Shown: one piece after another, positions 2,076 through 51,676 of the stretch
Numbering within the stretch: position 1 is the first letter of the stretch
How the letters are laid out: every line of letters begins with the position of its first letter
NCBI GenBank assembly: GCA_030690165.1
Contig: JAUYHF010000055.1
Location: forward strand, 3,493-67,492
Direction of reading: 5' to 3'
Length of the DNA stretch: 64,000 nt
Origin: Deltaproteobacteria bacterium
Lineage (GTDB): Bacteria > Desulfobacterota > GWC2-55-46 > UBA9637
The notes under the pieces: generated by a model
Seen by the model: the letters and a program-made list of their open reading frames with translations, nothing else
Database searches by the model: none
Told to the model about the DNA's origin: nothing
Program-made: the position numbers and the translations under genes

Positions 2076-2993
2076 ATGCCGCCCTTTAAATCAGGTTTTG
2101 TGTCAATCATAGGCCGTCCGAATGTCGGAAAGTCCACGCTCCTTAACACAATCCTCGGAGAGAAGATTGCTATAGTCTCCCCTAAGCCCCAGACCACAAG
2201 GAACAGGATCCGCGGTATTAAAAATATGGAGGATGCCCAGATAATATTTCTGGATACACCTGGCATACATTCTGACAAGGGATATCTGAACGAATTTATG
2301 ATAAGGGAGGCAATCTCTGCAATTGAAGATGTTGATGTAATCATTTATCTTGTTGAGGCTTCAAAGACGCTTGAAAAGGACGATTCTTTGATTATTGACA
2401 ATCTAAGGCGGATTAAATCCCCTGTCCTACTCGGCATAAATAAAACAGATATAACGCGGAAAGACAATATTCTGCCTTTGATAAATGAATATTCAAAACT
2501 ATACCCGTTCAAAGAGATTATCCCTATATCTGCGACCCGGGGAGAGGGAATAGAGACGCTTGTAAAGCTAGTCGTGGAGCTGCTGCCGGAGGGGCCGAAA
2601 TATTTCCCGGAGGATATATTAACAGACCTTCCTGAACGTTTTATAGTTGCTGAGATTGTAAGGGAAAAGATATTTAAGCTTACAAGACAGGAGATACCTT
2701 ACTCAACTGCTGTGGTGATTGATTCTTTTAAAGAAAATCCGAAGCTTGTCCCTGCAGGTAATAAGCAGGGAAAGGGGCTTGTCTCTATATCTGCGACAAT
2801 CAATGTGGAGAGGGACTCGCAAAAGGGGATTATAATCGGCAAGGGCGGAAAGATGCTGAAGGAGATCGGCACGCTCGCCCGCATTGATATTGAAAAACTC
2901 CTTGGCGCAAAGGTCTATCTTGAGCTCTTTGTAAAAGTGGAAAAGGACTGGACAAAGGATAAAAAACTATTAAAGGAGTTTGGATACCATTGA
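2076..2993 (+). CDS. era: GTPase Era
   Basis: G1 motif GRPNVGKST, DTPG, NKxD, C-terminal KH domain; 305 aa. Confidence 0.9.
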   Translation: MPPFKSGFVSIIGRPNVGKSTLLNTILGEKIAIVSPKPQTTRNRIRGIKNMEDAQIIFLDTPGIHSDKGYLNEFMIREAISAIEDVDVIIYLVEASKTLEKDDSLIIDNLRRIKSPVLLGINKTDITRKDNILPLINEYSKLYPFKEIIPISATRGEGIETLVKLVVELLPEGPKYFPEDILTDLPERFIVAEIVREKIFKLTRQEIPYSTAVVIDSFKENPKLVPAGNKQGKGLVSISATINVERDSQKGIIIGKGGKMLKEIGTLARIDIEKLLGAKVYLELFVKVEKDWTKDKKLLKEFGYH

Positions 2994-4312
2994 AACCCAT
3001 TGTTGCAATAGTCGGCAGGCCAAATGTAGGAAAGTCAACATTGTTTAACCGCATCATCGGCAAACAAAAGGCCCTTGTCAAGAATGAGCCTGGCGTGACC
3101 AGAGACTTAAATTATGCGGATGTGGTTGAACAGGGGAGGGCATTTACCCTGATTGACACAGGCGGGTTTGAGCTGCCAAAAAGAGGCAGAGGGGATTTGA
3201 CTATGCTTACCAAGGTAAGAGAGCAGGTTATGCTTGCAATAGAAGAGGCCGACATTATTGTATTTCTCATGGACGGCCGCGAGGGTTTCCTTTCATCTGA
3301 TAGAGATATTGCAGATATATTGAGAAGGGCTGATAAAAAGCCCATTTATGCGGTAAATAAAATAGATACAGATAAGCAAGAGCAGGGGATTACTGATTTT
3401 TATGCCTTAGGCATGGAAGACCTCGCCTTTGTTTCAGCGGAAGGGGGGAGGGGAGTGTATGAACTGCTGGATAAAATAATAGACTCTATTCCTAAAACCA
3501 GCGCCAAAGAGGAAGAAGATAGGATAAAACTTGCTGTTGCAGGGAGGCCCAATGTCGGCAAATCCTCTCTTGTAAACAGACTGCTCGGATATAAAAGGGT
3601 CATTGTGAGCGATATTCCCGGCACCACAAGAGATGCAATTGACACGCCGTTCAATTATAATAAAAAAAAATATCTGCTTATAGACACAGCCGGCATAAGA
3701 AAGAAGACAAGGATTGCCAGAACGCTTGAGCAGTATTCTGTCATGTCGGCCATAAAAAGTATTGACAGGTGCAATATTGCGCTGCTCATCATAGATGCAA
3801 AGGACGGCTTGACAGAACAGGATGAGAAGATAGCAGGTCTTGCCTATGAGAGGGGGAAGGGGTGCATTATTGTTGTAAACAAATGGGACATTATTCAAAA
3901 GGAGACAAATACCATCAAGGAATATACAGAGAGGATAAGATGGAAGGCAGGCTTCTTACGGTTTGCGCCTGTGATATTCGTATCGGCATTCACAGGCCAA
4001 AGGGTCTTTAATATCCTTGAGAAAGTAGAAGAGGTGCTGGCGCAGCTTGAGAAAAGGGTGCCGACCTCACAGCTAAATAATTTTTTTGATGGTTTTAAAA
4101 AATATCACCAACCGCCTATCTATAAAAGCAAGGCCGTGAAGATTTATTACATAACCCAGACAGACATAAAGCCGCCCACATTTGTTGCCTTCGTGAATTT
4201 TACGGAAGGCATCCACTTCTCTTATGAACGGTTTCTTGTAAACAAGATTAGAGAGGCATTTGGATTGGATAAAATACCCATCAGGCTTTATTTTAGAAAG
4301 AGGCAGAGGTAA
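2990..4312 (+). CDS. der: Ribosome-associated GTPase Der/EngA, tandem GTPase domains
   Basis: Two GxxxxGKS P-loops (GRPNVGKST at N-term, GRPNVGKSS mid-protein), C-terminal KH-like domain; 4-bp overlap with era. Confidence 0.9.
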   Translation: MKPIVAIVGRPNVGKSTLFNRIIGKQKALVKNEPGVTRDLNYADVVEQGRAFTLIDTGGFELPKRGRGDLTMLTKVREQVMLAIEEADIIVFLMDGREGFLSSDRDIADILRRADKKPIYAVNKIDTDKQEQGITDFYALGMEDLAFVSAEGGRGVYELLDKIIDSIPKTSAKEEEDRIKLAVAGRPNVGKSSLVNRLLGYKRVIVSDIPGTTRDAIDTPFNYNKKKYLLIDTAGIRKKTRIARTLEQYSVMSAIKSIDRCNIALLIIDAKDGLTEQDEKIAGLAYERGKGCIIVVNKWDIIQKETNTIKEYTERIRWKAGFLRFAPVIFVSAFTGQRVFNILEKVEEVLAQLEKRVPTSQLNNFFDGFKKYHQPPIYKSKAVKIYYITQTDIKPPTFVAFVNFTEGIHFSYERFLVNKIREAFGLDKIPIRLYFRKRQR

Positions 4313-4313
4313 G

Positions 4314-5138
4314 ATGAAAAAATTTTTTATTATTATAGCTGACAGCATCAAGGCATTTTCTTATGATAATTGCCTTACTATGGCTGCGGCAATATCATTT
4401 TATGCCTTATTTTCTCTGCTCCCGCTCATGTTTCTGCTGTTCTCTTTTATAGGCTTTACTCTCGGAACTGAGACACGGTTTTTTGAACAAGTTTTAGAAT
4501 TTGTGAAAAAGAGTCTTCCTTATCTGAGCGACAGCATCGTGGGGGACATTAAAGGGCTTATAGCTAACCGCAAGGTCTTTGGCTGGTTTGGCATTATAAC
4601 GCTCATCTGGAGCGCTGAGTTTGTAATACTTGCCATAAGAGATGCAATGAATATCATTTTTGGAGAAGCGGAGAAGATGGGCTTCGTAAAAACCAGGCTG
4701 GTTGTATGGGGGACATTCTTTATCTGGTGTGCGGTTTTTCTTATTTCCATAGGTCTTCCTCTTGCCGCAGAAATTTTAAGCAGAATAAAAATAGCCGCCT
4801 TCGGCATAGATATATCCTACTATCTTGCGAGGAGTGTAACCTTTAAATATTTCATGCCGGTTGTAATTATGGTTATTGCTGTGGCCTTTATATTCAAAAT
4901 AATGGTCGGGAAAAACATAAAAGCAAGACATGCTATTTTAGGCAGCATAATATTCTCTGTTTTATGGGAGGCGGCAAAACAACTCTTTGCCTTATACATC
5001 ACACATTTCGGAAGTTTTAACAAGATGTATGGCTCTCTCGGCGCTATTATGATAATGCTTTTATGGATATTTTATTCTGCAATTATATTGCTTTTCAGCG
5101 CCGAGTTTATTGCATCTGTAAAGGCGCCCAGGAAATGA
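4314..5138 (+). CDS. YihY/BrkB family inner-membrane protein
   Basis: MKKFFIIIADSIKAFSYDNCLTMAAAISFYALFSLLPLMFLL is the typical YihY N-terminus; multiple TM helices; the ORF-track start at 4260 overlaps der, so ATG 4314 is preferred. Confidence 0.75.
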   Translation: MKKFFIIIADSIKAFSYDNCLTMAAAISFYALFSLLPLMFLLFSFIGFTLGTETRFFEQVLEFVKKSLPYLSDSIVGDIKGLIANRKVFGWFGIITLIWSAEFVILAIRDAMNIIFGEAEKMGFVKTRLVVWGTFFIWCAVFLISIGLPLAAEILSRIKIAAFGIDISYYLARSVTFKYFMPVVIMVIAVAFIFKIMVGKNIKARHAILGSIIFSVLWEAAKQLFALYITHFGSFNKMYGSLGAIMIMLLWIFYSAIILLFSAEFIASVKAPRK

Positions 5139-5379
5139 TACCCAAAAATAGACTTTGATTTTTGGGGAAACCTGCAAGTTGCCTGTCAGACGAGGCAGAG
5201 GCTATTTTTGCGACAAGCCGTATATCACCAATACGGTGAGGAGCAAAAATGCGCCGATAACGAAGTATGGCAGGCAAATCGCAGGTTTGTAAAATAGCGA
5301 GGTTTTTAATCGCTATTTTACAGTGATAACAAGATATTGCGCAGGGATTAGTATTTTGTTATAGTTTTTAGAATTTATT

Positions 5380-5889
5380 ATGATAAAACCTTATAAAGAC
5401 ATAAATCCAAGGATAGCTCCAACAGCATATATTGAAGAGAGCGCCCGGATAATCGGCGATGTGGAGATAGGCGAATATTCCAGCGTATGGTGCAATGCTG
5501 TCCTTCGCGGGGATGTCCATTATATCAGGCTGGGCAAACGGACAAATATTCAGGACAACTGCGTTCTTCACGGCACAAAAGGCGTTTATCCTGTGATACT
5601 CGGAGATGATATTACAGTGGGGCATAATGTTACGCTTCACGGCTGTGTGGTCAAGGACAGATGCCTTATCGGCATGGGTTCAATAATACTTGACGGCGTT
5701 GAGATTGGAGAGGATTCTATAATAGGCGCAGGCGCATTGGTTACCGAAAAAAGCATTATACCGCCGCGGAGCCTTGTAATGGGTCTGCCTGGAAAGGTTG
5801 TAAGACAGCTTAAAGACGCGGAGGTTTCAAGGATTTTACAATCTGCGAAAAACTATATTGAATATTCTGAAGGCTATAAAGGAAGATAA
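5380..5889 (+). CDS. Gamma-class carbonic anhydrase family / hexapeptide-repeat protein
   Basis: Left-handed beta-helix hexapeptide repeats; conserved His ligands (NCVLHG, VTLHG); 169 aa. Confidence 0.8.
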   Translation: MIKPYKDINPRIAPTAYIEESARIIGDVEIGEYSSVWCNAVLRGDVHYIRLGKRTNIQDNCVLHGTKGVYPVILGDDITVGHNVTLHGCVVKDRCLIGMGSIILDGVEIGEDSIIGAGALVTEKSIIPPRSLVMGLPGKVVRQLKDAEVSRILQSAKNYIEYSEGYKGR

Positions 5890-5922
5890 TCCCTGTCCTT
5901 CCCTATCAGGGGAGAGGATATA

Positions 5923-6897
5923 ATGAGCATGGGCATTGCAACACGATACGCATCAATTGACATTGGCACAAATACCCTAAGACTTCTTATTGCGGAAATC
6001 GACAATAAAAAATTAAAGCCTGTTTTCCTAAAAAGGATTATCACAAGGCTCGGCGGTGATTATAAAGAAGATATTGGCATATCGCCGGCAGCAGAGGAGA
6101 GGACAATAAATACCCTCGGGATATTCGCTGAAAAGATTAAAGAGTATGGTGTCCAAGAGATTAAGGCTGTTGCAACCAGTGTGGTGAGAAGGGCAAAGAA
6201 TAAAAAAGAATTTCTCAAAAATGTCCTTGAAAGAACAGGATTAGACGTGAGGGTAATATCAGGGGATGAAGAGGCAAGGCTCTCTTTGTTAGGAGTTTTG
6301 TCGGTTATCGGAAATGGGAACAAAAAGTGTCTTGTGGTTGATATAGGCGGTGGAAGCACAGAATTTATTGCAGTAGATGCCGGAAAGATGATTGGTGCGT
6401 GGAGTATGGAGATGGGAGTTGTGCATCTCACAGAAAACTATTTAAAGACAGACCCGCCGGCTCACAATGAGTTAGATGCGATGGAAAATGAGATAAACGG
6501 CATTATTGCAGATTTGAAGGATTTGATGAAAAAAGCCTGTCCCTGTGAGCTTAAAGCAGGGAACGGCTGTTTGCCTTCAGCCTTGCTGATAGGCACAGCA
6601 GGCACGATAACAACACTGGCATCAATTGATCAGAGGCTTGAAGAATATGATGCTGACAGGATAAATAATTATGTATTAAAATATGAAACTGTTAAAAAGA
6701 TATATCAATGGCTTGCGTCCATGCCTTTAAAAGAAAGGGAAAAGGTGTTATCCCTTGAGAAGGGGAGGGAGGATATTATAATACCTGGGGCGGCTATCGT
6801 ATTAAAGGCAATGGAAGGTTTTGGCTTTGATAAAATGACTGTAAGCGATGCCGGGCTTTTGGAAGGAATATTGTTAGATGAGACAGGTTTAGGTTGA
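5923..6897 (+). CDS. Ppx/GppA family phosphatase (exopolyphosphatase / pppGpp phosphohydrolase)
   Basis: ASKHA-fold N-terminus IDIGTNTLRLLIAE, second DIGGGSTE motif. Confidence 0.8.
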   Translation: MSMGIATRYASIDIGTNTLRLLIAEIDNKKLKPVFLKRIITRLGGDYKEDIGISPAAEERTINTLGIFAEKIKEYGVQEIKAVATSVVRRAKNKKEFLKNVLERTGLDVRVISGDEEARLSLLGVLSVIGNGNKKCLVVDIGGGSTEFIAVDAGKMIGAWSMEMGVVHLTENYLKTDPPAHNELDAMENEINGIIADLKDLMKKACPCELKAGNGCLPSALLIGTAGTITTLASIDQRLEEYDADRINNYVLKYETVKKIYQWLASMPLKEREKVLSLEKGREDIIIPGAAIVLKAMEGFGFDKMTVSDAGLLEGILLDETGLG

Positions 6898-6951
6898 GGG
6901 AAAGACATGCTGAGGAAAACCTTAACCTGTATCTATTAGGAGGTTTAATAT

Positions 6952-8418
6952 ATGCCAAAAAATAATAATATGAAAGAAGGTCTTGCCTTTGACGATGTTT
7001 TATTAGCGCCGGCATATTCAGAGATACTGCCAAGGGATGTGGATACATCTACACGACTTACAAATACAATCAAATTAAACATCCCTCTTTTAAGCGCTGC
7101 CATGGATACGGTTACGGAATCCCGCATGGCCATTGCCATAGCGCAGGAAGGCGGCATGGGTATAATCCATAAAAATATTACCATAGAAGAACAGGCAATA
7201 GAGGTTGACAAGGTAAAAAAATACGAAAGTGTTATCATACTTAAACCCAGAACCCTTGACCCGGAGCAGCGTTTATACGACGTATTGGAGATAAAAAAGA
7301 CTGAGCAGATATCCAGTTTTCCCATAGTGAAAAACGGGAAGCTCGTAGGCATCCTTACCAACAGAGATTTAAGATTTGAAAAAAACCTCTCCAAAAAAAT
7401 ATCGGATGTGATGACAAAAGAGCTTGTAACAGCGCCTGTTGGCACATCCATAGAAAAAGCAAAAGCCATCCTCCATCGCCACAGGATTGAAAAGCTGCCT
7501 GTAGTGGATAAAAACGGGCAACTAAAGGGTTTGATAACCATTAACGATATTGAAAAACGAGAAAAATATCCAAACTCCTGCAAAGATAAACTCGGCAGGC
7601 TTATGGTCGGCGCAGCGATTGGCGTTTCTTTTGACCGTGAAGCAAGGGTGGAGGCGCTTTTAAACGCAGGCGCTGATATCATTGCCATTGATACGGCCCA
7701 CGGCCACAGCAAGGGTGTGCTGAATGCTATTAGGGATACAAGGAAGAACTTTCCCAAATGCCAGCTTATAGCAGGCAATGTCGGGACATCTGAAGGCGCA
7801 GAGGCGCTTATAAAAGCCGGTGTTGACGTAATAAAGGTCGGTATCGGTCCAGGTTCTATATGCACGACAAGGATTGTAACAGGTGTTGGCATTCCACAGA
7901 TAACAGCTATTATGAATTGCGCGGCAGTTGCCAGGAAAAAGAATATACCGGTTATTGCTGATGGCGGCGTAAAGTTTTCAGGAGATATGGTAAAGGCCAT
8001 TGCCGCCGGCGCAGACTCTGTAATGATCGGCGGACTCTTTGCCGGCACAGATGAAAGCCCCGGCGAAACTGTATTATATCAGGGACGGACATATAAAATG
8101 TATAGGGGCATGGGCTCAATTGAAGCTATGAAAAAAGGCAGTAAAGATAGATACTTTCAAGATGATGTTGAGAGTGAACTTAAACTTATTCCTGAGGGTA
8201 TTGAAGGAAGGGTTCCGCATAAAGGGCCGGTATCTTCAACTATATTTCAGCTTATTGGCGGCTTAAAATCAGGCATGGGGTATTGTGGTTCAAGGACTAT
8301 TCCTCTTCTTCAAAAGAAGGCAAAATTGGTAAAAATAACCTTTGCAGGGCTGCGCGAGAGCCATGTCCACGATGTGATTATCACAAAAGAGGCGCCGAAT
8401 TATAAGGTGGTGGAGTAG
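6952..8418 (+). CDS. guaB: IMP dehydrogenase
   Basis: TIM barrel with tandem CBS domains; catalytic loop [11 protein letters not shown]; 488 aa. Confidence 0.95.
8356..8418 (+). repeat. Direct repeat copy A (guaB 3' end, 63 bp)
   Basis: 59/63 identical to 9171-9233; copy A is the in-frame end of guaB. Confidence 0.85.
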
Positions 8419-8438
8419 ATAAAATTGCAGAGCGGAAG

Positions 8439-8645
8439 ATGGGTAAAGGTATAGATATGAGAAAAAGTAAGGTTTTGAGGTTTGATGAAATTATGAACCT
8501 CTATGATGAATTGTTTCCTGGTAGAAAAGGGGTAAGGATTGATACCCTGCTAAAATCTGTTGCCCCGAAAACAGTAGCCGAAAGGTTAAAAGAGACCATC
8601 CGGATTTCAGAAAAATTAGTATGGAAAAGACCCTCAAAGAGATAA
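8439..8645 (+). CDS. Small hypothetical protein (68 aa), upstream partner of nucleotidyltransferase
   Basis: ORF overlaps the downstream NTase gene by 25 nt (translational coupling); no recognisable family. Confidence 0.4.
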   Translation: MGKGIDMRKSKVLRFDEIMNLYDELFPGRKGVRIDTLLKSVAPKTVAERLKETIRISEKLVWKRPSKR

Positions 8646-9172
8646 TCAGGATTTTTGAACATGCCGGAGATGTTAAGGCTTATGCCCTTATAGGCGGATT
8701 GGCTGTCGGCGGATGGATTGCGCCGAGGGCAACAAAGGATATAGATATTCTGGCTGATTTATCCGTTACTACCCGTTCCGCAATAGAACGAGTCCTGAAG
8801 AAGTTTTTAACAGCAGGTTTTAAAGGAAGCATACAAATAGGCGCCCCTGAAGATGATATAAAATTTTGTATAAAAGCAGTATCGGGCGAGAAGGTTCCCG
8901 TTGATATAATATTTGCCAGCCGGAAATGGGAGGCGGAAATAGTTGAGGAAGGCTTGCCGGTTGAGTTGTTGAAGGGCCTCTCCATTCCTCTGGTTAGGCC
9001 GGAGGGCTTGATAACGCTTAAGCTAAAAGCTGGCAGCTTTCAAGACATTGCAGATGCATCAAAGCTTTTAGTCGAAGCCGAGTATGATTTACAAAGATTA
9101 CGTAAACTGGCAAAGAGGGCAAGGGTTGATAAAAGGCTCGAAAGGCTTATGGAAAAATTAGAGCTGGCGTGA
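8621..9172 (+). CDS. Minimal Pol-beta superfamily nucleotidyltransferase (AbiEii/MNT-like fold), 183 aa
   Basis: hG[GS]...DxD motif: YALIGGLAVGGWIAPRATKDIDIL; short size; sits between direct repeats. Confidence 0.6.
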   Translation: MEKTLKEIIRIFEHAGDVKAYALIGGLAVGGWIAPRATKDIDILADLSVTTRSAIERVLKKFLTAGFKGSIQIGAPEDDIKFCIKAVSGEKVPVDIIFASRKWEAEIVEEGLPVELLKGLSIPLVRPEGLITLKLKAGSFQDIADASKLLVEAEYDLQRLRKLAKRARVDKRLERLMEKLELA

Positions 9173-9233
9173 GAGCCATGTCCACGATGTTATTATCACA
9201 AAAGAGGTGCCGAATTATAAGGCGGTGGAGTAA
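9171..9233 (+). repeat. Direct repeat copy B (pseudo 3' end of guaB)
   Basis: Encodes [20 protein letters not shown], a near-duplicate of the GuaB C-terminus, detached from any gene. Confidence 0.85.
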
Positions 9234-9661
9234 TGCAGTTAAACAAAGAATTATTCAATAGCTTTACAAAACAATATCAACTTTCCAAAACCCTTCGCTT
9301 TGAATTGGTGCCGCAGCAAGGGACAGAAAAATTAGTCAGGCAATTATTCGAAAAGCCAGAAGAAAATCATCATGAGATTATTCGAAAAGATTTAGAACTT
9401 TCCAAGAGTTACAAGCATGTAAAAAAACTAATTGATTGCAGGCACAGAAGCATTATTGATGAGGTTTTAAACAAGTTTACTTTTAATGAGAAGGAGTTAG
9501 CAATACTCAACAACAATGGCGATTTAGAGGAAGATGATGATACAGATAAAAAAGACCCGCTTAAAAAACTGCGAGAAAAAGTTGCCAGTGCTTTAGATGC
9601 AAAGTCCAAAATCATGTTTGACAACAAGTTGTTAAATCCAGTAAAATTTCTACTATTGTAG
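9233..9661 (+). pseudogene. cas12a: cas12a (cpf1) N-terminal remnant, 142 codons
   Basis: FTKQYQLSKTLRFELVPQQGT and YKHVKKLIDCRHRSIIDEVL match the conserved Cas12a N-terminus (WED-I/REC1); ORF ends in stop TAG that is part of the first CRISPR repeat; full-length Cas12a is ~1200-1300 aa. Confidence 0.75.
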
Positions 9662-9781
9662 ATTAAACTGGGCGCATGGAAATCTCCTTAGTCTAAAGCA
9701 CCAATAAAATTTCTACTATTGTAGATGAATCGGCCTGTGCGCCCGGACAGGAGTGTCTAAAGCACCAATAAAATTTCTACT
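9628..9781 (+). CRISPR. Type V-A (Cas12a-type) mini CRISPR array: 3 repeats (first 5'-degenerate, last 3'-truncated), 2 spacers
   Basis: Repeats at 9628-9663 (degenerate 5' half), 9691-9726 (GTCTAAAGCACCAATAAAATTTCTACTATTGTAGAT) and 9755-9781 (truncated); spacers 9664-9690 (27 nt) and 9727-9754 (28 nt); repeat 3' end AATTTCTACTATTGTAGAT is the Cas12a crRNA handle with TCTAC/GTAGA stem. Confidence 0.8.
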
Positions 9782-9858
9782 CCCCCTCCGTCATATTTTT
9801 TGATTGTTTATTCCGCTCTTTTAAGTTATATTTTCTTACCATTGCTGCAAATTCCTTT

Positions 9859-11418
9859 ATGCCGGACATCCATCAGCAAAAAATCCTCATATTAGATTTT
9901 GGCTCACAATATACCCAGCTCATCGCAAGAAGGGTGAGAGAGGCAAAGGTATATTGCGAGATACATCCTTATAATATCGGCATGGACGGGATAAAGGGTT
10001 TTAATGCCAAAGGCATTATCCTCTCAGGCGGACCGTCAAGTGTCTATGACAAAGATGCTCCTCTTATTCCCAAAGAGGTCTTTAATCTAAATATTCCAAT
10101 CCTTGGCATCTGTTACGGAATGCAGCTTACAGCCCATCTCCTTGGCGGCAAGGTGGAGAAATCTGCTCACAGGGAATACGGAAGCGCTGAACTTGTAATT
10201 GATGATGGTTCGGATTTGTTATCACGCATCACGCATCACGCACAACGCATCACACAAGTTTGGATGAGCCACGGCGACAGGGTTATTAAGATGCCGAAGG
10301 GATTTGTATCTATTGCCCACAGCAAAAATTCGCCTATATGCGCAATGAGTGATGACAGAAGAAAAATATTCGGCGTTCAGTTTCATCCTGAGGTTGTCCA
10401 TACACCAAAAGGCCGGCAGATTATCAAAAACTTCCTTTTTAAGATATGTGGATGCAAGCCTGTATGGACTATGGAATCATTCATAGACACTGCTGTAGCA
10501 GATATAAGGGAGCGGGTGGGGAAGAGAGGTATCGTGTGCGGTATAAGCGGCGGCGTTGATTCTGCCGTTGCAGCTGTTTTGCTTCATCGCGCAGCCGGTA
10601 GGCAGCTAACCTGTATATTTGTTGATAACGGTCTTTTGAGGGCAGGGGAGGCGGAGAAGGTGGAACAAGCTCTCAGGAAAAACTTCCGCATGAGGCTTAT
10701 TTGTATAGACGCCTCCAAAAGGTTTCTTAATAAGCTTACGGGAGTGGAAGACCCTGAAAAAAAGCGAAAGATTATCGGAAATGAATTTATAAGGGTTTTT
10801 GAAGAAGAGGCCATGAAATTAAAAAATGCGGCCTTTCTCGGGCAGGGGACATTGTATCCTGATGTGATTGAAAGCATATCATTCAAAGGCCCTTCAGCTA
10901 CTATAAAAAGTCATCATAATGTAGGCGGGCTCTTAAAAAAGATGAAGCTCAAGCTGGTAGAACCGTTAAGAGAATTATTTAAGGACGAGGTTCGCATCCT
11001 GGGCAGGGCATTGGGTATGCCTGAAGAGATAATAAACAGGCATCCATTTCCGGGGCCAGGCCTTGCTATAAGGGTTTTGGGTGAGGTTACAAAAGAGCGG
11101 TGTGAGATTCTGAGAAAGGCCGACAGTATAGCGCTGGAGGAGATAAAGATTGCGGGACTTTATATAAAGATCTGGCAGGCATTTGCAGTGCTTTTGCCGA
11201 TTAAAACAGTTGGCGTAATGGGAGACGAAAGGACTTATGAAAATGTAATTGCAATAAGGGCGGTAGAGAGTGTGGACGGAATGACAGCGGATTGGGTAAG
11301 ATTGCCTTATGATATTATGGCAAGAATTTCAACGAGAATAATAAATGAGGTAAAAGGTGTAAACAGGGTGGTTTACGATATAAGCACAAAACCCCCGAGT
11401 ACAATAGAATGGGAGTGA
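9859..11418 (+). CDS. guaA: GMP synthase (glutamine-hydrolysing)
   Basis: N-terminal class-I GATase ([20 protein letters not shown]), ATP-PPase SGGVDS motif, conserved C-terminal dimerisation domain ending IEWE. Confidence 0.95.
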
Positions 11419-43030: not shown

Positions 43031-45817
43031 TCAATATCCAACTCCCCTTGCCTCTTCATACCACTTATCAAAGTGATGCGCTAACAGAAGTTTTGAAAAA
43101 TCTGAATCCTTATTAACTATCTCATAGACAATTGTAGGGGTTGCCGACTCAAAACCCTTAAATATTATTTCTCCTGCCTTGCATATCACATCTATCTGTT
43201 TAATCCCCTCTGTCATAAACACGCCAAACCACAATTCCAGCGCCTTAAACGGAAAGAAGAAGGTATTTTGTGTTTCTTTGTTCAATTCAGTTATCCGAAC
43301 CTCCCGCTTAAAAAAGAACCCCCTTCCGCTGTTCTCTTTAATATATGCCTTTAACGCATCCGCGCTCAATGCCTGGCCTTTATTATATATATCGCTGGCA
43401 GCGCTCAATATCCTTAGAGAGGAAAGGGGCTCGCCGGAAATAATTCTTCTAAAATCTCTGAAACATTCCTGGGCCAGCGCAGAAGCCAGGTCTTTTGCCT
43501 CAGACATATCTTTACGGATAATCATGCCTTCCAGATGCTCATCCATGCTTGGAGGCACAAGGAAACCATATGTCTTATCTATATAAACATCAAGCGGATA
43601 TTTGAGGCTTGGGTTGCGCCTCTTAATCCTTTCTTCTTCAAGAAGCCTCTCCATCTTTGCCCTTACTATAGAACTTCTCGCAGTGCCTCTGGCTGCTTCA
43701 TTTATCTTTTCTCCAATAGCCACCTTTAACTCGCCCCAGAAAGCGTCTCTCATTACAATAATCTCAGCCTTGCTGCCATAGGTAATAAAGAGACCTGCCT
43801 CCATCTCCTGTCCTATCGCAGCCTCCAATTCATCTTTATATGTTTTCTCCAGCCTGTCCTCCTTCTCCTTCAATTCTATTGCCCTGGCCTCTAATCCTTT
43901 ACCGCCGGCAGCCACAGCCTTCTCCAATTCAGCCATTTCCCTGCCAAACTCCTCTTTCATTGCCTCAAAGTTCTTATGGATGCTGCGGAGAAGCTCTTCT
44001 TCTGCAATATGATGAACCCTTCTCTCTAATTGCTCTTTATACCTCTTCATAACCAGCCGAATATCCTTTGCCAAGGCAATAAGATTGCTGACCCCGCCGG
44101 AAAATACCACGGCGTCGCCAAGCAGATTGTTCAATTTTATGTTCTTTTCATCATATGCCAAACCAGGGGCTGAAGAGCCGTATCTGCCTGCGGCCCTGAG
44201 GATGGGCTTATAGAAATTTGATTCCATAAAGTCCGCCATTATGATCTCCTTTGCCCTCAGGGTCTTCCTTGTAAAATCCTTCATGTCTACAAAGAGATGT
44301 CCTTCATCCTCTGCCTCTAACTCCTTTAATATTGCCATACTATCAGAGGAAAACCGGTAAAGCCTTCCCCTTTCATATTCCATTTTCAATGTCTCGATAG
44401 AAAACTCACCGCGCCTGTCAACCATCAATTCACGCATGGGACCGGCAAACCTCTCCACATCTTCATCAAATCTGTACGCGGTAAATGACTCTAATATGTC
44501 CCTAACGTACATGCCCCCTTTTCTTATTCCTAATAAGCCGCTAAAGGTGGTTTTTTTAACGGAGTCTATAAACTCCTCTATTGCATCTATTCTCTCTATT
44601 CTGCCTATATCCTTTTGAAACTGCGCCTTTATATTTTCTAAACCTTCCTTCAGTCTCGTCGTTATCTTTGTATCCGTAAAGAGCATCTGAATAAATCTAT
44701 TGTCCTGATATAATTCGGCAAGCATCTGGTTAATCCCCATTCCAGGGGTGTCGTAATCCAGAAGGTAATCGCCTATCAGCTGTCTTAAATGGTTTATATT
44801 GGAGAACCTGAAAAGCCCTTCTCTGAGAGACGAATCCTTTTTTATCTCATTTTCCATCATCTGGATAATACTTGCGGCATCCTGATTGGGGACAGATTTC
44901 AAATCTGTCCCCAGTGCATTGTCATAAAATGGCTTTAATAAAGAGACTACATCGGCCTGAAGCCCGTATGGATTTAAATCGCTTAAAATAATATTCCCAT
45001 GAATGGTCAAAAAACTTCTTGGTGTAAACCATTCCTCAAAAACCATCGGCGCTGCAGAGCTATTAGAAGCCGTTATTTGTCTTATTTCAGACGCCACATC
45101 CTTTACAGCAGCCTTAAAAACAAAATACAGGGCAAGCCCTGCTATCTGATCCAGCCTTTCATAACTAAGGCCTTTTATCTTTGTATTTCTTATAATGGCC
45201 TCTTTCTTCCGTATGGCAATATTTATCATAGCCATAATCGCCAGAACAGATGTCTTCTCCACGCCTTCCAAGCGCACCTCTTCAAGCACGGCCTTTCCCA
45301 ATATTCCCTTGACCAGCGCATAAAATGTCTTTCCATAACCATCCGGAGAAAGCCATGCCTTTAATATCCCGCTGTCAATAAAGGGTGTTGTTGTTAATAT
45401 TTCGCAGGCAATATTTTTTTCTACTGAGCCGGGCAGGAAATAATCTGTCCTATAAGTCTTCTCTGAGAGGGTTGTTTTTATATCAATGGTGGAAGGAAGG
45501 CTGCCTTTGATTTCGTGTTCAGAGCCTGGTTCAAAACGTCTTCTTAAAAGTATCAGCAGCGCAAGAATGGCTCTTTCTATTACAGACTCATCTTCTACGC
45601 CGAACAGGCAGGGTATCTTTAAGTCTTTTATAGACTCCCCTAAACGGAATCTCGTATAAGAAGGCTCTATCATCCACAATCTGCCTGTTTTAAGTTCAAA
45701 TCCTTTTTGTAAAATACCATCAAGGACTTTGAGCCTCTCTTTGACGAATGTATGGTAGGTATCTGTCGGCATAGAATTAGCAGGCAGCTTACAACAGATG
45801 GGTGCGCTTCGCTTCAT
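43031..45817 (-). CDS. Large hypothetical protein (928 aa), no recognisable catalytic motifs
   Basis: Long uninterrupted ORF with normal codon usage; mostly alpha-helical with a central charged coiled-coil segment. Confidence 0.6.
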   Translation of the reverse strand: MKRSAPICCKLPANSMPTDTYHTFVKERLKVLDGILQKGFELKTGRLWMIEPSYTRFRLGESIKDLKIPCLFGVEDESVIERAILALLILLRRRFEPGSEHEIKGSLPSTIDIKTTLSEKTYRTDYFLPGSVEKNIACEILTTTPFIDSGILKAWLSPDGYGKTFYALVKGILGKAVLEEVRLEGVEKTSVLAIMAMINIAIRKKEAIIRNTKIKGLSYERLDQIAGLALYFVFKAAVKDVASEIRQITASNSSAAPMVFEEWFTPRSFLTIHGNIILSDLNPYGLQADVVSLLKPFYDNALGTDLKSVPNQDAASIIQMMENEIKKDSSLREGLFRFSNINHLRQLIGDYLLDYDTPGMGINQMLAELYQDNRFIQMLFTDTKITTRLKEGLENIKAQFQKDIGRIERIDAIEEFIDSVKKTTFSGLLGIRKGGMYVRDILESFTAYRFDEDVERFAGPMRELMVDRRGEFSIETLKMEYERGRLYRFSSDSMAILKELEAEDEGHLFVDMKDFTRKTLRAKEIIMADFMESNFYKPILRAAGRYGSSAPGLAYDEKNIKLNNLLGDAVVFSGGVSNLIALAKDIRLVMKRYKEQLERRVHHIAEEELLRSIHKNFEAMKEEFGREMAELEKAVAAGGKGLEARAIELKEKEDRLEKTYKDELEAAIGQEMEAGLFITYGSKAEIIVMRDAFWGELKVAIGEKINEAARGTARSSIVRAKMERLLEEERIKRRNPSLKYPLDVYIDKTYGFLVPPSMDEHLEGMIIRKDMSEAKDLASALAQECFRDFRRIISGEPLSSLRILSAASDIYNKGQALSADALKAYIKENSGRGFFFKREVRITELNKETQNTFFFPFKALELWFGVFMTEGIKQIDVICKAGEIIFKGFESATPTIVYEIVNKDSDFSKLLLAHHFDKWYEEARGVGY

Positions 45818-50779: not shown

Positions 50780-50911
50780 CCATATAACTTAATAATCTCA
50801 TCCAACATAAGATATGGCTTTATTAATCCGCAATTTGTATCAATTTGTTTTTTCACGTTCACATTGATTTTATCACAGAGAGTTAATATATTTTACATAG
50901 GAGGAAATATT

Positions 50912-51676
50912 ATGAAGAGATTTTTACTTTTTATGACAATCGCTATCCTGTTTACTGTTTGGGGATGCAGTAAAAAAGTCGTGACATCAGAGACAGCCGT
51001 TGGACAGATACCAAAGAAAGAGGCAGCCCAGACAGAGGCGGTCAAGGAGAAAGAAACCGCCGCAGTTACCGCGCCTGTTGAGGCTCCATCCATAACACCA
51101 GAAGCCGTGAAACAAGAGGAAGCTGTTACAGAGGAGAAAGAAGCCGCCGCAGTTGCCGCGCCTGTTGAAGTTCCATCCATAATACCAGAAACCGTGAAAT
51201 CAAAGGAAGCTGCTATAGAGGAGAAAGAAACTGCCGCAGTTACTGCGCCTGTTGAGGCTCCATCCATAATACCAGAAGCCGTGAAATCAAAGGAAGCTGC
51301 TATAGAGGAGAAAGAAACTGCCGCAGTTACTGCGCCTGTTGAGGTATTAAAGCTGCAGGACATATTCTTTGATTTCGACAGGTTCCTTATCAGGGAAGAG
51401 GCCAGGCCGGTTCTTGAGACAAATGCGGATTACTTGAAAGCCAATAAGGATTCTAAAATTCTTATTGAAGGCCACTGTGATGAAAGGGGAACCTCGGAAT
51501 ACAATATGGCCCTTGGCGAGAGAAGGGCGCAGTCTGCAAAAAAATACCTTATTGATCTGGGTATAGACCCATCGAGGATATCCACTATAAGTTACGGTAA
51601 AGAAAAGCCATTCTGCACAGACCACAACGAGGGATGCTGGCAAGAAAACAGAAGGGCGCATTTTACCATAAAGTAA
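50912..51676 (+). CDS. OmpA/Pal-family lipoprotein with ~29-aa tandem repeats in linker
   Basis: RBS GGAGG, lipobox LFTVWGC; four 87-nt repeats (ETAAVTAPVEAPSIIPEAVKSKEAAIEEK) between 51046 and 51340; C-terminal OmpA-like peptidoglycan-binding domain. Confidence 0.8.
   Translation: MKRFLLFMTIAILFTVWGCSKKVVTSETAVGQIPKKEAAQTEAVKEKETAAVTAPVEAPSITPEAVKQEEAVTEEKEAAAVAAPVEVPSIIPETVKSKEAAIEEKETAAVTAPVEAPSIIPEAVKSKEAAIEEKETAAVTAPVEVLKLQDIFFDFDRFLIREEARPVLETNADYLKANKDSKILIEGHCDERGTSEYNMALGERRAQSAKKYLIDLGIDPSRISTISYGKEKPFCTDHNEGCWQENRRAHFTIK

Follow-up and report, generated by a model that had tools for sequence, protein, structure and literature searches.

A cas12a fragment that ends in a CRISPR repeat

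We analyzed a stretch of 64,000 nucleotides (nt) of contig JAUYHF010000055.1 (assembly GCA_030690165.1), here called the window, which comes from the metagenome-assembled genome (MAG) of an uncultured groundwater bacterium of the Deltaproteobacteria/Thermodesulfobacteriota. Between guaB (IMP dehydrogenase) and guaA (GMP synthase), the window carries a 142-amino-acid (aa) open reading frame (ORF) that runs into a short CRISPR array. A first-pass annotation, made from the letters of the sequence, had taken this ORF for the N-terminal remnant of the type V-A effector Cas12a (Cpf1), joined to the array by a deletion that also removed the adaptation genes. All features of this locus lie on the plus strand and are given in window coordinates.

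The ORF as called spans positions 9233..9661 and carries the N-terminal WED-I/REC1 signature of Cas12a (..Y.LSKTLRFEL..); both motifs quoted in the first-pass annotation are present. The Cas12a profile TIGR04330 aligned with its positions 1-108 of 1288 (E value, 8e-15; 53.7 bits), a score far under the full-length cutoff of 300 bits, and 14 Cas12a models of PADLOC matched over profile positions ~2-125 of 1141-1363, the best with an E value of 3.4e-20. These searches bear out the proposed Cas12a N terminus. Cas12a was the sole family among the profiles matching the stub, the N-terminal end alone being covered each time, and the match to Pfam REC1 was weak. The 25 matching sequences in the PDB are all Cas12a/Cpf1-type effectors, aligned by their N termini over chain residues ~3-110 or, in a single chain that is extended at the N terminus, 60-160. 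The identification corrects the deposited annotation of the product (MDP2682930.1) as a hypothetical protein.

An exhaustive HMMER search returned 152 relatives of the stub. The closest full-length one, P0172 (1446 aa, 66% identity over stub residues 10-138), scores 887 bits against the 300-bit cutoff and is a genuine Cas12a. The intact-looking relatives nearest to the stub, P0002 and P0005, come from SRC assemblies made at the protein level, which have no contig. The stub amounts to ~9% of P0172 and ~11% of an effector of 1200-1300 aa, so the truncation proposed earlier stands and its figure of ~12% is slightly too high. A full-length Cas12a has ~1200-1500 aa and a score above the family cutoff, and the 142-aa ORF falls short on both counts. 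Homology ends at codon 136. Because the RuvC, Nuc, and PI domains and the RNA-processing part (the WED RNase site) are gone, the stub is, as read from its sequence, a pseudogene fragment predicted to be unable to act as an effector.

The part derived from cas12a comprises 136 codons plus 1 nt (9233..9641), with homology to WED-I and the start of REC1, and ends at 9641 (...AAATCCAG). The sequence from 9642 on is TAAAATTTCTACTATTGTAGAT, which corresponds to positions 15-36 of the 36-nt repeat of the array. The last 6 codons and the stop of the ORF are read from this repeat: V-K-F-L-L-L-stop (9641-9661) is encoded by TAAAATTTCTACTATTGTAG, identical to repeat positions 15-34, and the earlier assignment of the terminal KFLLL and TAG to the first repeat is correct. 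In the protein alignment, the relatives run on after ...FDNKLLNP with GSKNEDGE...LE.W...KYL..., and the stub has VKFLLL and then the stop. At the breakpoint itself, the relatives read through as ...KLLNPGSKNEDGE..., where the stub shows ...KLLNP-VKFLLL and its stop codon. This agrees with the proposed deletion that fused cas12a to the array. The bases shared by cas12a and the repeat at the join are at most 3 nt (CCA), and we therefore infer illegitimate recombination.

A scan of JGI metagenomes with the stub returned a single contig, L001, which is 1.1 kb long and of low coverage. It holds a related cas12a 5' region (572-1036; 72% aa identity) in which homology likewise breaks off directly behind ...DAKLL, with a stop 21 codons further on, through truncation, a frameshift, or an assembly problem.

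The ratio of nonsynonymous to synonymous substitution rates (dN/dS) between the stub and the L001 region is 0.16, with dS saturated at 1.38. Together with a frame that has stayed open over 136 codons, a GGTGGAG upstream of it, and an ATG that overlaps the stop of a guaB-tail copy, the low ratio might suggest that the Cas12a N terminus has given rise to a small protein of 142 aa with a function of its own. We regard this as very improbable. With dS saturated, the low ratio reads as the history of the full gene, that is, as a past within a working cas12a, and does not imply present selection. The C terminus is encoded by a CRISPR repeat, and stubs elsewhere end differently, at 79 aa (in contig L003, described below) and 154 aa (in L001). 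Judged by its homology with the solved structures of Cas12a, the product is one WED strand with part of REC1, not an independent domain.

A two-spacer array truncated on both sides

The array following the stub consists of one full and two partial repeats with two spacers. Partial repeat 1 (9642..9663; repeat positions 15-36) keeps the whole 19-nt 5' handle of the CRISPR RNA (crRNA). It is followed by spacer 1 of 27 nt (9664..9690), the full 36-nt type V-A repeat GTCTAAAGCACCAATAAAATTTCTACTATTGTAGAT (9691..9726), spacer 2 of 28 nt and 64% G+C (9727..9754), and partial repeat 3 (9755..9781; repeat positions 1-27). The 3' end of the repeat folds as a 5-bp hairpin, UCUAC/GUAGA, of the Cas12a-handle type. 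Both remaining units keep the complete handle with this hairpin, and partial repeat 3 has none. The repeat copies in the window are mutually 100% identical, the spacers are unique, the period is 63-64 nt over the only two units, and the orientation is the same as that of the stub, as in V-A loci.

Unrelated sequence (CCCCCTCC...) after partial repeat 3 marks a second breakpoint on the guaA side, from which a right flank of 77 nt with no homologue in the relatives extends to the guaA start (9782..9858). The fusion at the first repeat described in the first-pass annotation therefore covers one of two breakpoints, the array being truncated at both ends. Upstream of the first repeat fragment lies cas12a coding sequence and not a leader, and none of the adaptation genes (cas4, cas1, and cas2) is adjacent.

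Further arrays with the same repeat had been envisaged. None is in the window, where no other repeat-like sequence was found (and none is expected in shuffled sequences), but another groundwater MAG contig, JACRNI010000062, has the identical repeat in an array with 9 or more units. This is the only other array with this repeat in the GTDB genomes, and it lies at the contig end without cas genes. Neither the repeat nor the stub had a copy in IMG/VR, GenBank phages, or PLSDB plasmids, and an Rfam search of the region gave no family.

Neither the window nor IMG/VR contained a match to spacer 1. Within the window, searches allowing up to 3 mismatches returned only the spacers themselves, and no seed match of at least 9 nt with a TTV protospacer-adjacent motif (PAM) was found, the sole seed match, 11 nt long, lacking a PAM. 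For spacer 2, the initial 20 nt (9727-9746) occur exactly, with a CTTG 5' flank, in three identical viral contigs of 65% GC in IMG/VR (L007, 8075-8094; L008, 2134-2153; L009, 102-121). Of the last 8 nt of the spacer, 1/8 matches in these contigs, and the 3' half alone finds nothing. The 20-nt match is probably due to chance; the expectation of ~0.1 chance 20-mer matches per query in a database of the size of IMG/VR is a rough, uncomputed estimate.

A small array with a complete handle in its first unit could also be a dedicated regulatory or decoy element, either a crRNA-like mini-array or a standalone-repeat RNA that titrates Cas12a. Two-repeat mini-arrays occur commonly in the vicinity of cas12a, as do standalone repeat units (PMC10120712), and a preprint reports phages that hijack host crRNA-like regulatory RNAs (10.1101/2024.10.29.618823). 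The array in the window is like such elements in having two small units, but it has no partially complementary promoter target, neither spacer having a PAM-flanked partial match in the window, and there is no surrounding cas locus, no cas gene having been found within 64 kb to be regulated. Its repeats are identical to the normal array repeat and not diverged, the spacer in L003 is a different one, and the repeat is absent from the phage, virus, and plasmid collections named above. On balance, we hold a regulatory or decoy function to be highly unlikely.

The rest of a V-A locus was sought in the window. A tblastn search with a 1052-aa C-terminal region of Cas12a gave nothing, and a search with Cas1 and Cas2 also gave nothing, the latter being a weak test because the queries came from a type II locus. 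Pfam matched no Cas family among the tested window ORFs of at least 150 aa; the Pfam content of the window is made up of housekeeping functions (V-type ATPase, pur and pyr genes, etc.) and an AbiEii-like pair. The claim that the remainder of cas12a and the adaptation genes are gone is thus upheld for the window, with this reservation on cas1 and cas2. We also considered a CRISPR-associated transposon or homing array. This was rejected, as the Pfam content includes no tnsB, tnsC, or tniQ genes and the effector fragment is Cas12a, not Cas12k.

A promoter-like site, TTGACA-N18-TAAAAT (9618..9647), matches the sigma-70-type consensus at 11/12 positions and spans the deletion junction, with TTGACA in the cas12a remnant and TAAAAT at the first retained bases of the repeat. 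Matches of 11/12 number only 3 on both strands of the window, the junction site included; the site was noticed post hoc as a match to the consensus and is not evidence of function. If active, it would start transcription inside the first handle and continue through the second unit into guaA. Because no terminator-like site was found on the plus strand between guaB and guaA (8300-9950), the array is probably either cotranscribed with the operon or transcribed from the junction site. Only a compatible Cas12a supplied in trans could process the resulting RNA and make use of it.

The guaB-guaA site and its relatives

guaB (6952..8418) is recognized by the IMPDH family of Pfam and is 97% identical in aa sequence to its relatives; guaA (9859..11418) follows downstream of the array. 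In the closest relatives compared, the groundwater contigs L010-L014 (97% aa identity in guaB), the two genes are separated by 9 nt, the junction sequence having been read in L012. The window is 90-96% identical in nt sequence to these contigs on either side of a sharp boundary: the alignments with L012 and L010 end at 8405 and resume at 9865. A lineage-specific insert of 1459 nt (1.46 kb; 8406..9864) takes the place of 28 nt in the relatives (last 12 nt of guaB, 9-nt spacer, and first 6 nt of guaA). It consists of two parts, an AbiEii-like cassette within a duplication of the guaB tail and the stub with its mini-array. The remnant is thus in the middle of guaBA, as first stated. The intact V-A locus that the first-pass annotation proposed to look for in related strains was not seen in any of the eleven guaB contexts looked up (L003 and L010-L019).

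The AbiEii-like cassette (8439..9172) is a neighbor of the stub and lies outside the CRISPR remnant. It comprises a 68-aa ORF (8439..8645), which has no family match and is far shorter than AbiEi, and a 183-aa AbiEii/DUF6036-like nucleotidyltransferase (8621..9172). The AbiEii nucleotidyltransferase domain is recognized by PF08843 (E value, 9e-7; 29.5 bits against a cutoff of 22.5 bits), and the PADLOC match to AbiEii is marginal. The cassette is bracketed by a direct repeat of the 66-nt guaB 3' tail, with copy 1 at the end of guaB (8352-8417) and copy 2, now noncoding, directly before the stub (9167..9232). Copy 2 provides the GGTGGAG as a purine-rich stretch resembling a Shine-Dalgarno sequence, and its TAA overlaps the ATG of the stub (GGAGTAATG). 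The first-pass annotation had called the decay recent and traceable. The junction is indeed traceable; the decay may be recent, its repeats being undecayed, but the tail copies differ at 4/66 positions.

The same cassette is found after guaB in L015 (92.6% nt identity) and in L019 (guaB 97% identical), and is not present in L010-L014. Its identity to L015 is higher than that of guaB between the same genomes (~80-90%), and its right join is exactly at its stop codon, with few shared bases. Homology-facilitated illegitimate recombination, known from work on natural transformation, combines one homologous anchor with one illegitimate join. The cassette is like the products of this process in being flanked by a 66-nt duplication of the end of the anchor gene, whereas its mechanism is read here from the structure of the junctions alone. 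This structure suggests entry by one homologous crossover in guaB and one illegitimate join, which would explain the tail duplication; a Campbell-type insertion of a circular intermediate would give the same structure. A foreign origin of the KVVE-type guaB tail was considered and rejected, as this tail is present in most relatives, including P0010/L019 at 97% identity.

The contigs L015 and L016 carry genes suggestive of restriction-modification (R-M), encoding a methyltransferase and a ResIII helicase, downstream of guaB (L015, 10526-16470; L016, 10972-14807), and guaA is not nearby in either. Toxin-antitoxin (TA) genes are also found in the guaB flanks of both. Because R-M and TA genes flank guaB in these contigs, the guaB 3' flank is a strain-variable defense hotspot. 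Between ppx and guaB, L015 has an ORF of 1092 aa (4526-7804) with no match in Pfam or PADLOC. A type II locus, cas9-cas1-cas2, lies ~4-6 kb downstream of guaA in the closest relative, L010 (15366-17467), and has no counterpart in the window, so CRISPR-Cas content varies between near-identical backbones.

A second stub was found in contig L003 (Logan SRR22387798). The module (1-440) starts with a 20-nt guaB-type tail (AATTATAAGGTGGTGGAGTGATG) and continues with a 79-aa ORF from MQLNKELL (TIGR04330 positions 3-66; E value, 1e-25). This ORF runs into the first base of a full repeat, 1 nt off the window repeat, after which come a spacer different from those of the window and a second repeat. The two stubs are 44% identical in aa sequence, and the L003 stub breaks at codon ~74. 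Its low identity and other breakpoint mark it as an independent event, which took place in another cas12a lineage. Downstream of guaB in L003, the opposite strand carries an RNase P RNA gene (2984-3220).

What the window has in common with L003 is the guaB-type tail and the first ~10 codons of the stub. From codon ~10 on, the stub resembles the cas12a of L001, in which the upstream region is unrelated. L016, which has no cas12a, shows CAGTTAAATAAA directly after the guaB stop, ~15-25 nt of the same sequence. We take this as evidence that this clade has harbored V-A loci at the end of guaB and that they recombined there.

In the guaA start region (9840-9864), the window has ATGCCG with no obvious Shine-Dalgarno sequence, and the relatives have GGAG..GTGCAA. 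The start has been replaced, and the translation signals of guaA therefore come from the insert. Within guaA, a heptanucleotide repeat (10221-10253; ATCACGC x4.7) encodes a low-complexity stretch. This segment is 59-74% identical to the closest relative, compared with mostly 87-100% in the rest of the gene.

Elsewhere in the window, a 927-aa ORF on the minus strand (43031..45817), between the genes for a GH57 branching enzyme and a GATase_5 protein, has no match in Pfam or NCBIfam. An 87-nt tandem repeat (51045-51344; 3.4 copies, 92% matches) lies within an ORF of the OmpA family (50864..51676).

Origin and significance of the remnant

With a probability of about 85%, the feature is what an internal deletion spared of a type V-A CRISPR-Cas locus, a remnant without function. 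The stub is a piece of cas12a, the repeats are those of a V-A array, both breakpoints can be placed, the insert is absent from close relatives, and a stub-repeat fusion recurs in a second contig. We infer the order of events and the mechanism as follows. Illegitimate recombination would have joined cas12a codon 137 to repeat position 15, taking away ~90% of cas12a, any cas4, cas1, and cas2, the leader, and an uncertain number of repeat-spacer units. On the guaA side, a second breakpoint would have ended the array at repeat position 27, leaving the 136-codon stub and two spacer units. The loss of the defense locus here is ordinary decay in a variable genomic hotspot.

Several points weigh against this account. 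Among the relatives, none was found with guaB and guaA on either side of an intact V-A locus, so decay in situ is not directly demonstrated, and the remnant, part of a mosaic insert of 1.46 kb, may have been imported already truncated. The tail and first ~10 codons resemble L003 and the post-guaB sequence of L016 and the body is of the L001 type, which shows recombination beyond a single deletion. The L003 module lies upstream of ppx-guaB and not downstream of guaB, a position for which we have no explanation. The array can be called an orphan within the 64-kb window. Finally, the Logan contig L004, which is identical to the window over 1600 nt, may derive from the same reads as the MAG and is not independent.

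The last point matters also for an assembly artifact, whether through a chimeric join or through collapsed CRISPR repeats. In favor of this view, the window belongs to a MAG, assemblies frequently break or collapse arrays, and the array in contig L005 ends with its contig. A false join through a shared k-mer is contradicted by the junctions, with ~3 nt in common at the cas12a-repeat join and no shared word at the right one. L004 is a second assembly with 100% identity, possibly of the same reads, and L003, from an unrelated sample, has an analogous stub-repeat fusion with another breakpoint. Collapse may alter the number of spacers but cannot make a stub. There is very little chance, in our estimate, that the feature arose in this way.

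Another view would see in the guaB 3' end a docking site that V-A loci of the groundwater clade have long used. The stub with the guaB tail and the terminal repeats would act as homology arms, whole V-A cassettes with different cas12a alleles would be lost and recaptured by recombination, and an "empty socket" would be represented twice, by the window and by L003; the junction sequence to which this view is tied is GGTGGAGTRATGCARTTAAAYAAAGAATT. We consider such a docking site possible but doubtful. A related proposal, that the remnant has been kept because it is useful, either as homology arms for cassette exchange or through a junction promoter that drives guaA after the operon was split, appears unlikely to us to a similar degree.

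Several observations favor retention. Two cas12a lineages with 44% aa identity in the stub have in common the guaB-type tail and the first ~10 codons, and their repeats are nearly identical; the closest cas12a relatives of the window have other N termini, which points to a mosaic 5' end; and the short post-guaB sequence is shared by L016. Recapture at V-A remnants has been proposed for Francisella (PMC10120712). The 11/12 junction site, the missing terminator-like site before guaA, and the lack of an obvious Shine-Dalgarno sequence would suit a promoter role. Yet both ends of the locus are expected to survive in any case when a deletion is bounded by needed flanking genes, an intact locus was not seen at guaB, and the promoter is a post hoc consensus match. 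P0005, with the N terminus MQLNKELF, was dropped as a third lineage, being a protein-level assembly that could be chimeric, and the likeness of the right flanks of the window and L003, a 12-mer with an E value of 0.55, was discarded as evidence.

If the feature is a deletion remnant, it can be set beside complete and decayed V-A loci. The canonical order is reportedly cas12a-cas4-cas1-cas2-leader-array, as in Francisella novicida U112. Like canonical loci, the window has the N-terminal Cas12a signature, a 36-nt repeat ending in AAUUUCUAC-UAUU-GUAGAU, spacers of 27-28 nt, and an array codirectional with cas12a; unlike them, it is without ~90% of cas12a and has neither adaptation genes nor a leader, and its array counts one full and two partial repeats. 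With orphan arrays in general it shares the lack of adjacent cas genes and a dependence on Cas proteins in trans for any work. It differs from them in that an effector-to-repeat ORF records exactly where the deletion was joined, which makes the loss event directly readable.

The nearest precedent is Francisella hispaniensis, in which the V-A locus is missing between conserved flanks and a standalone repeat unit lies beside the last degenerate repeat; such remnants were proposed as recombination targets for recapture (Shmakov et al. 2023, PMC10120712). In the window, too, a V-A locus has been lost between conserved genes with repeat-derived sequence left behind. The F. hispaniensis remnant has no cas12a fragment, whereas the breakpoint in the window is inside cas12a (codon 137), and two spacers and undecayed repeats are kept. 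The host is also different, an uncultured groundwater MAG in place of Francisella. The locus is thus a fresh example of a known phenomenon and reveals no new mechanism.

Its value lies in providing a base-resolved example of the loss of a class 2 CRISPR-Cas system, in which one internal deletion would have begun in the effector gene, ended in a repeat, and left a small, transcribable orphan array within an essential operon. Together with the L003 stub and the variable R-M and TA content, the window marks a defense hotspot in an uncultured lineage, and it offers a modest test case for the idea of loss and recapture that was developed from Francisella.

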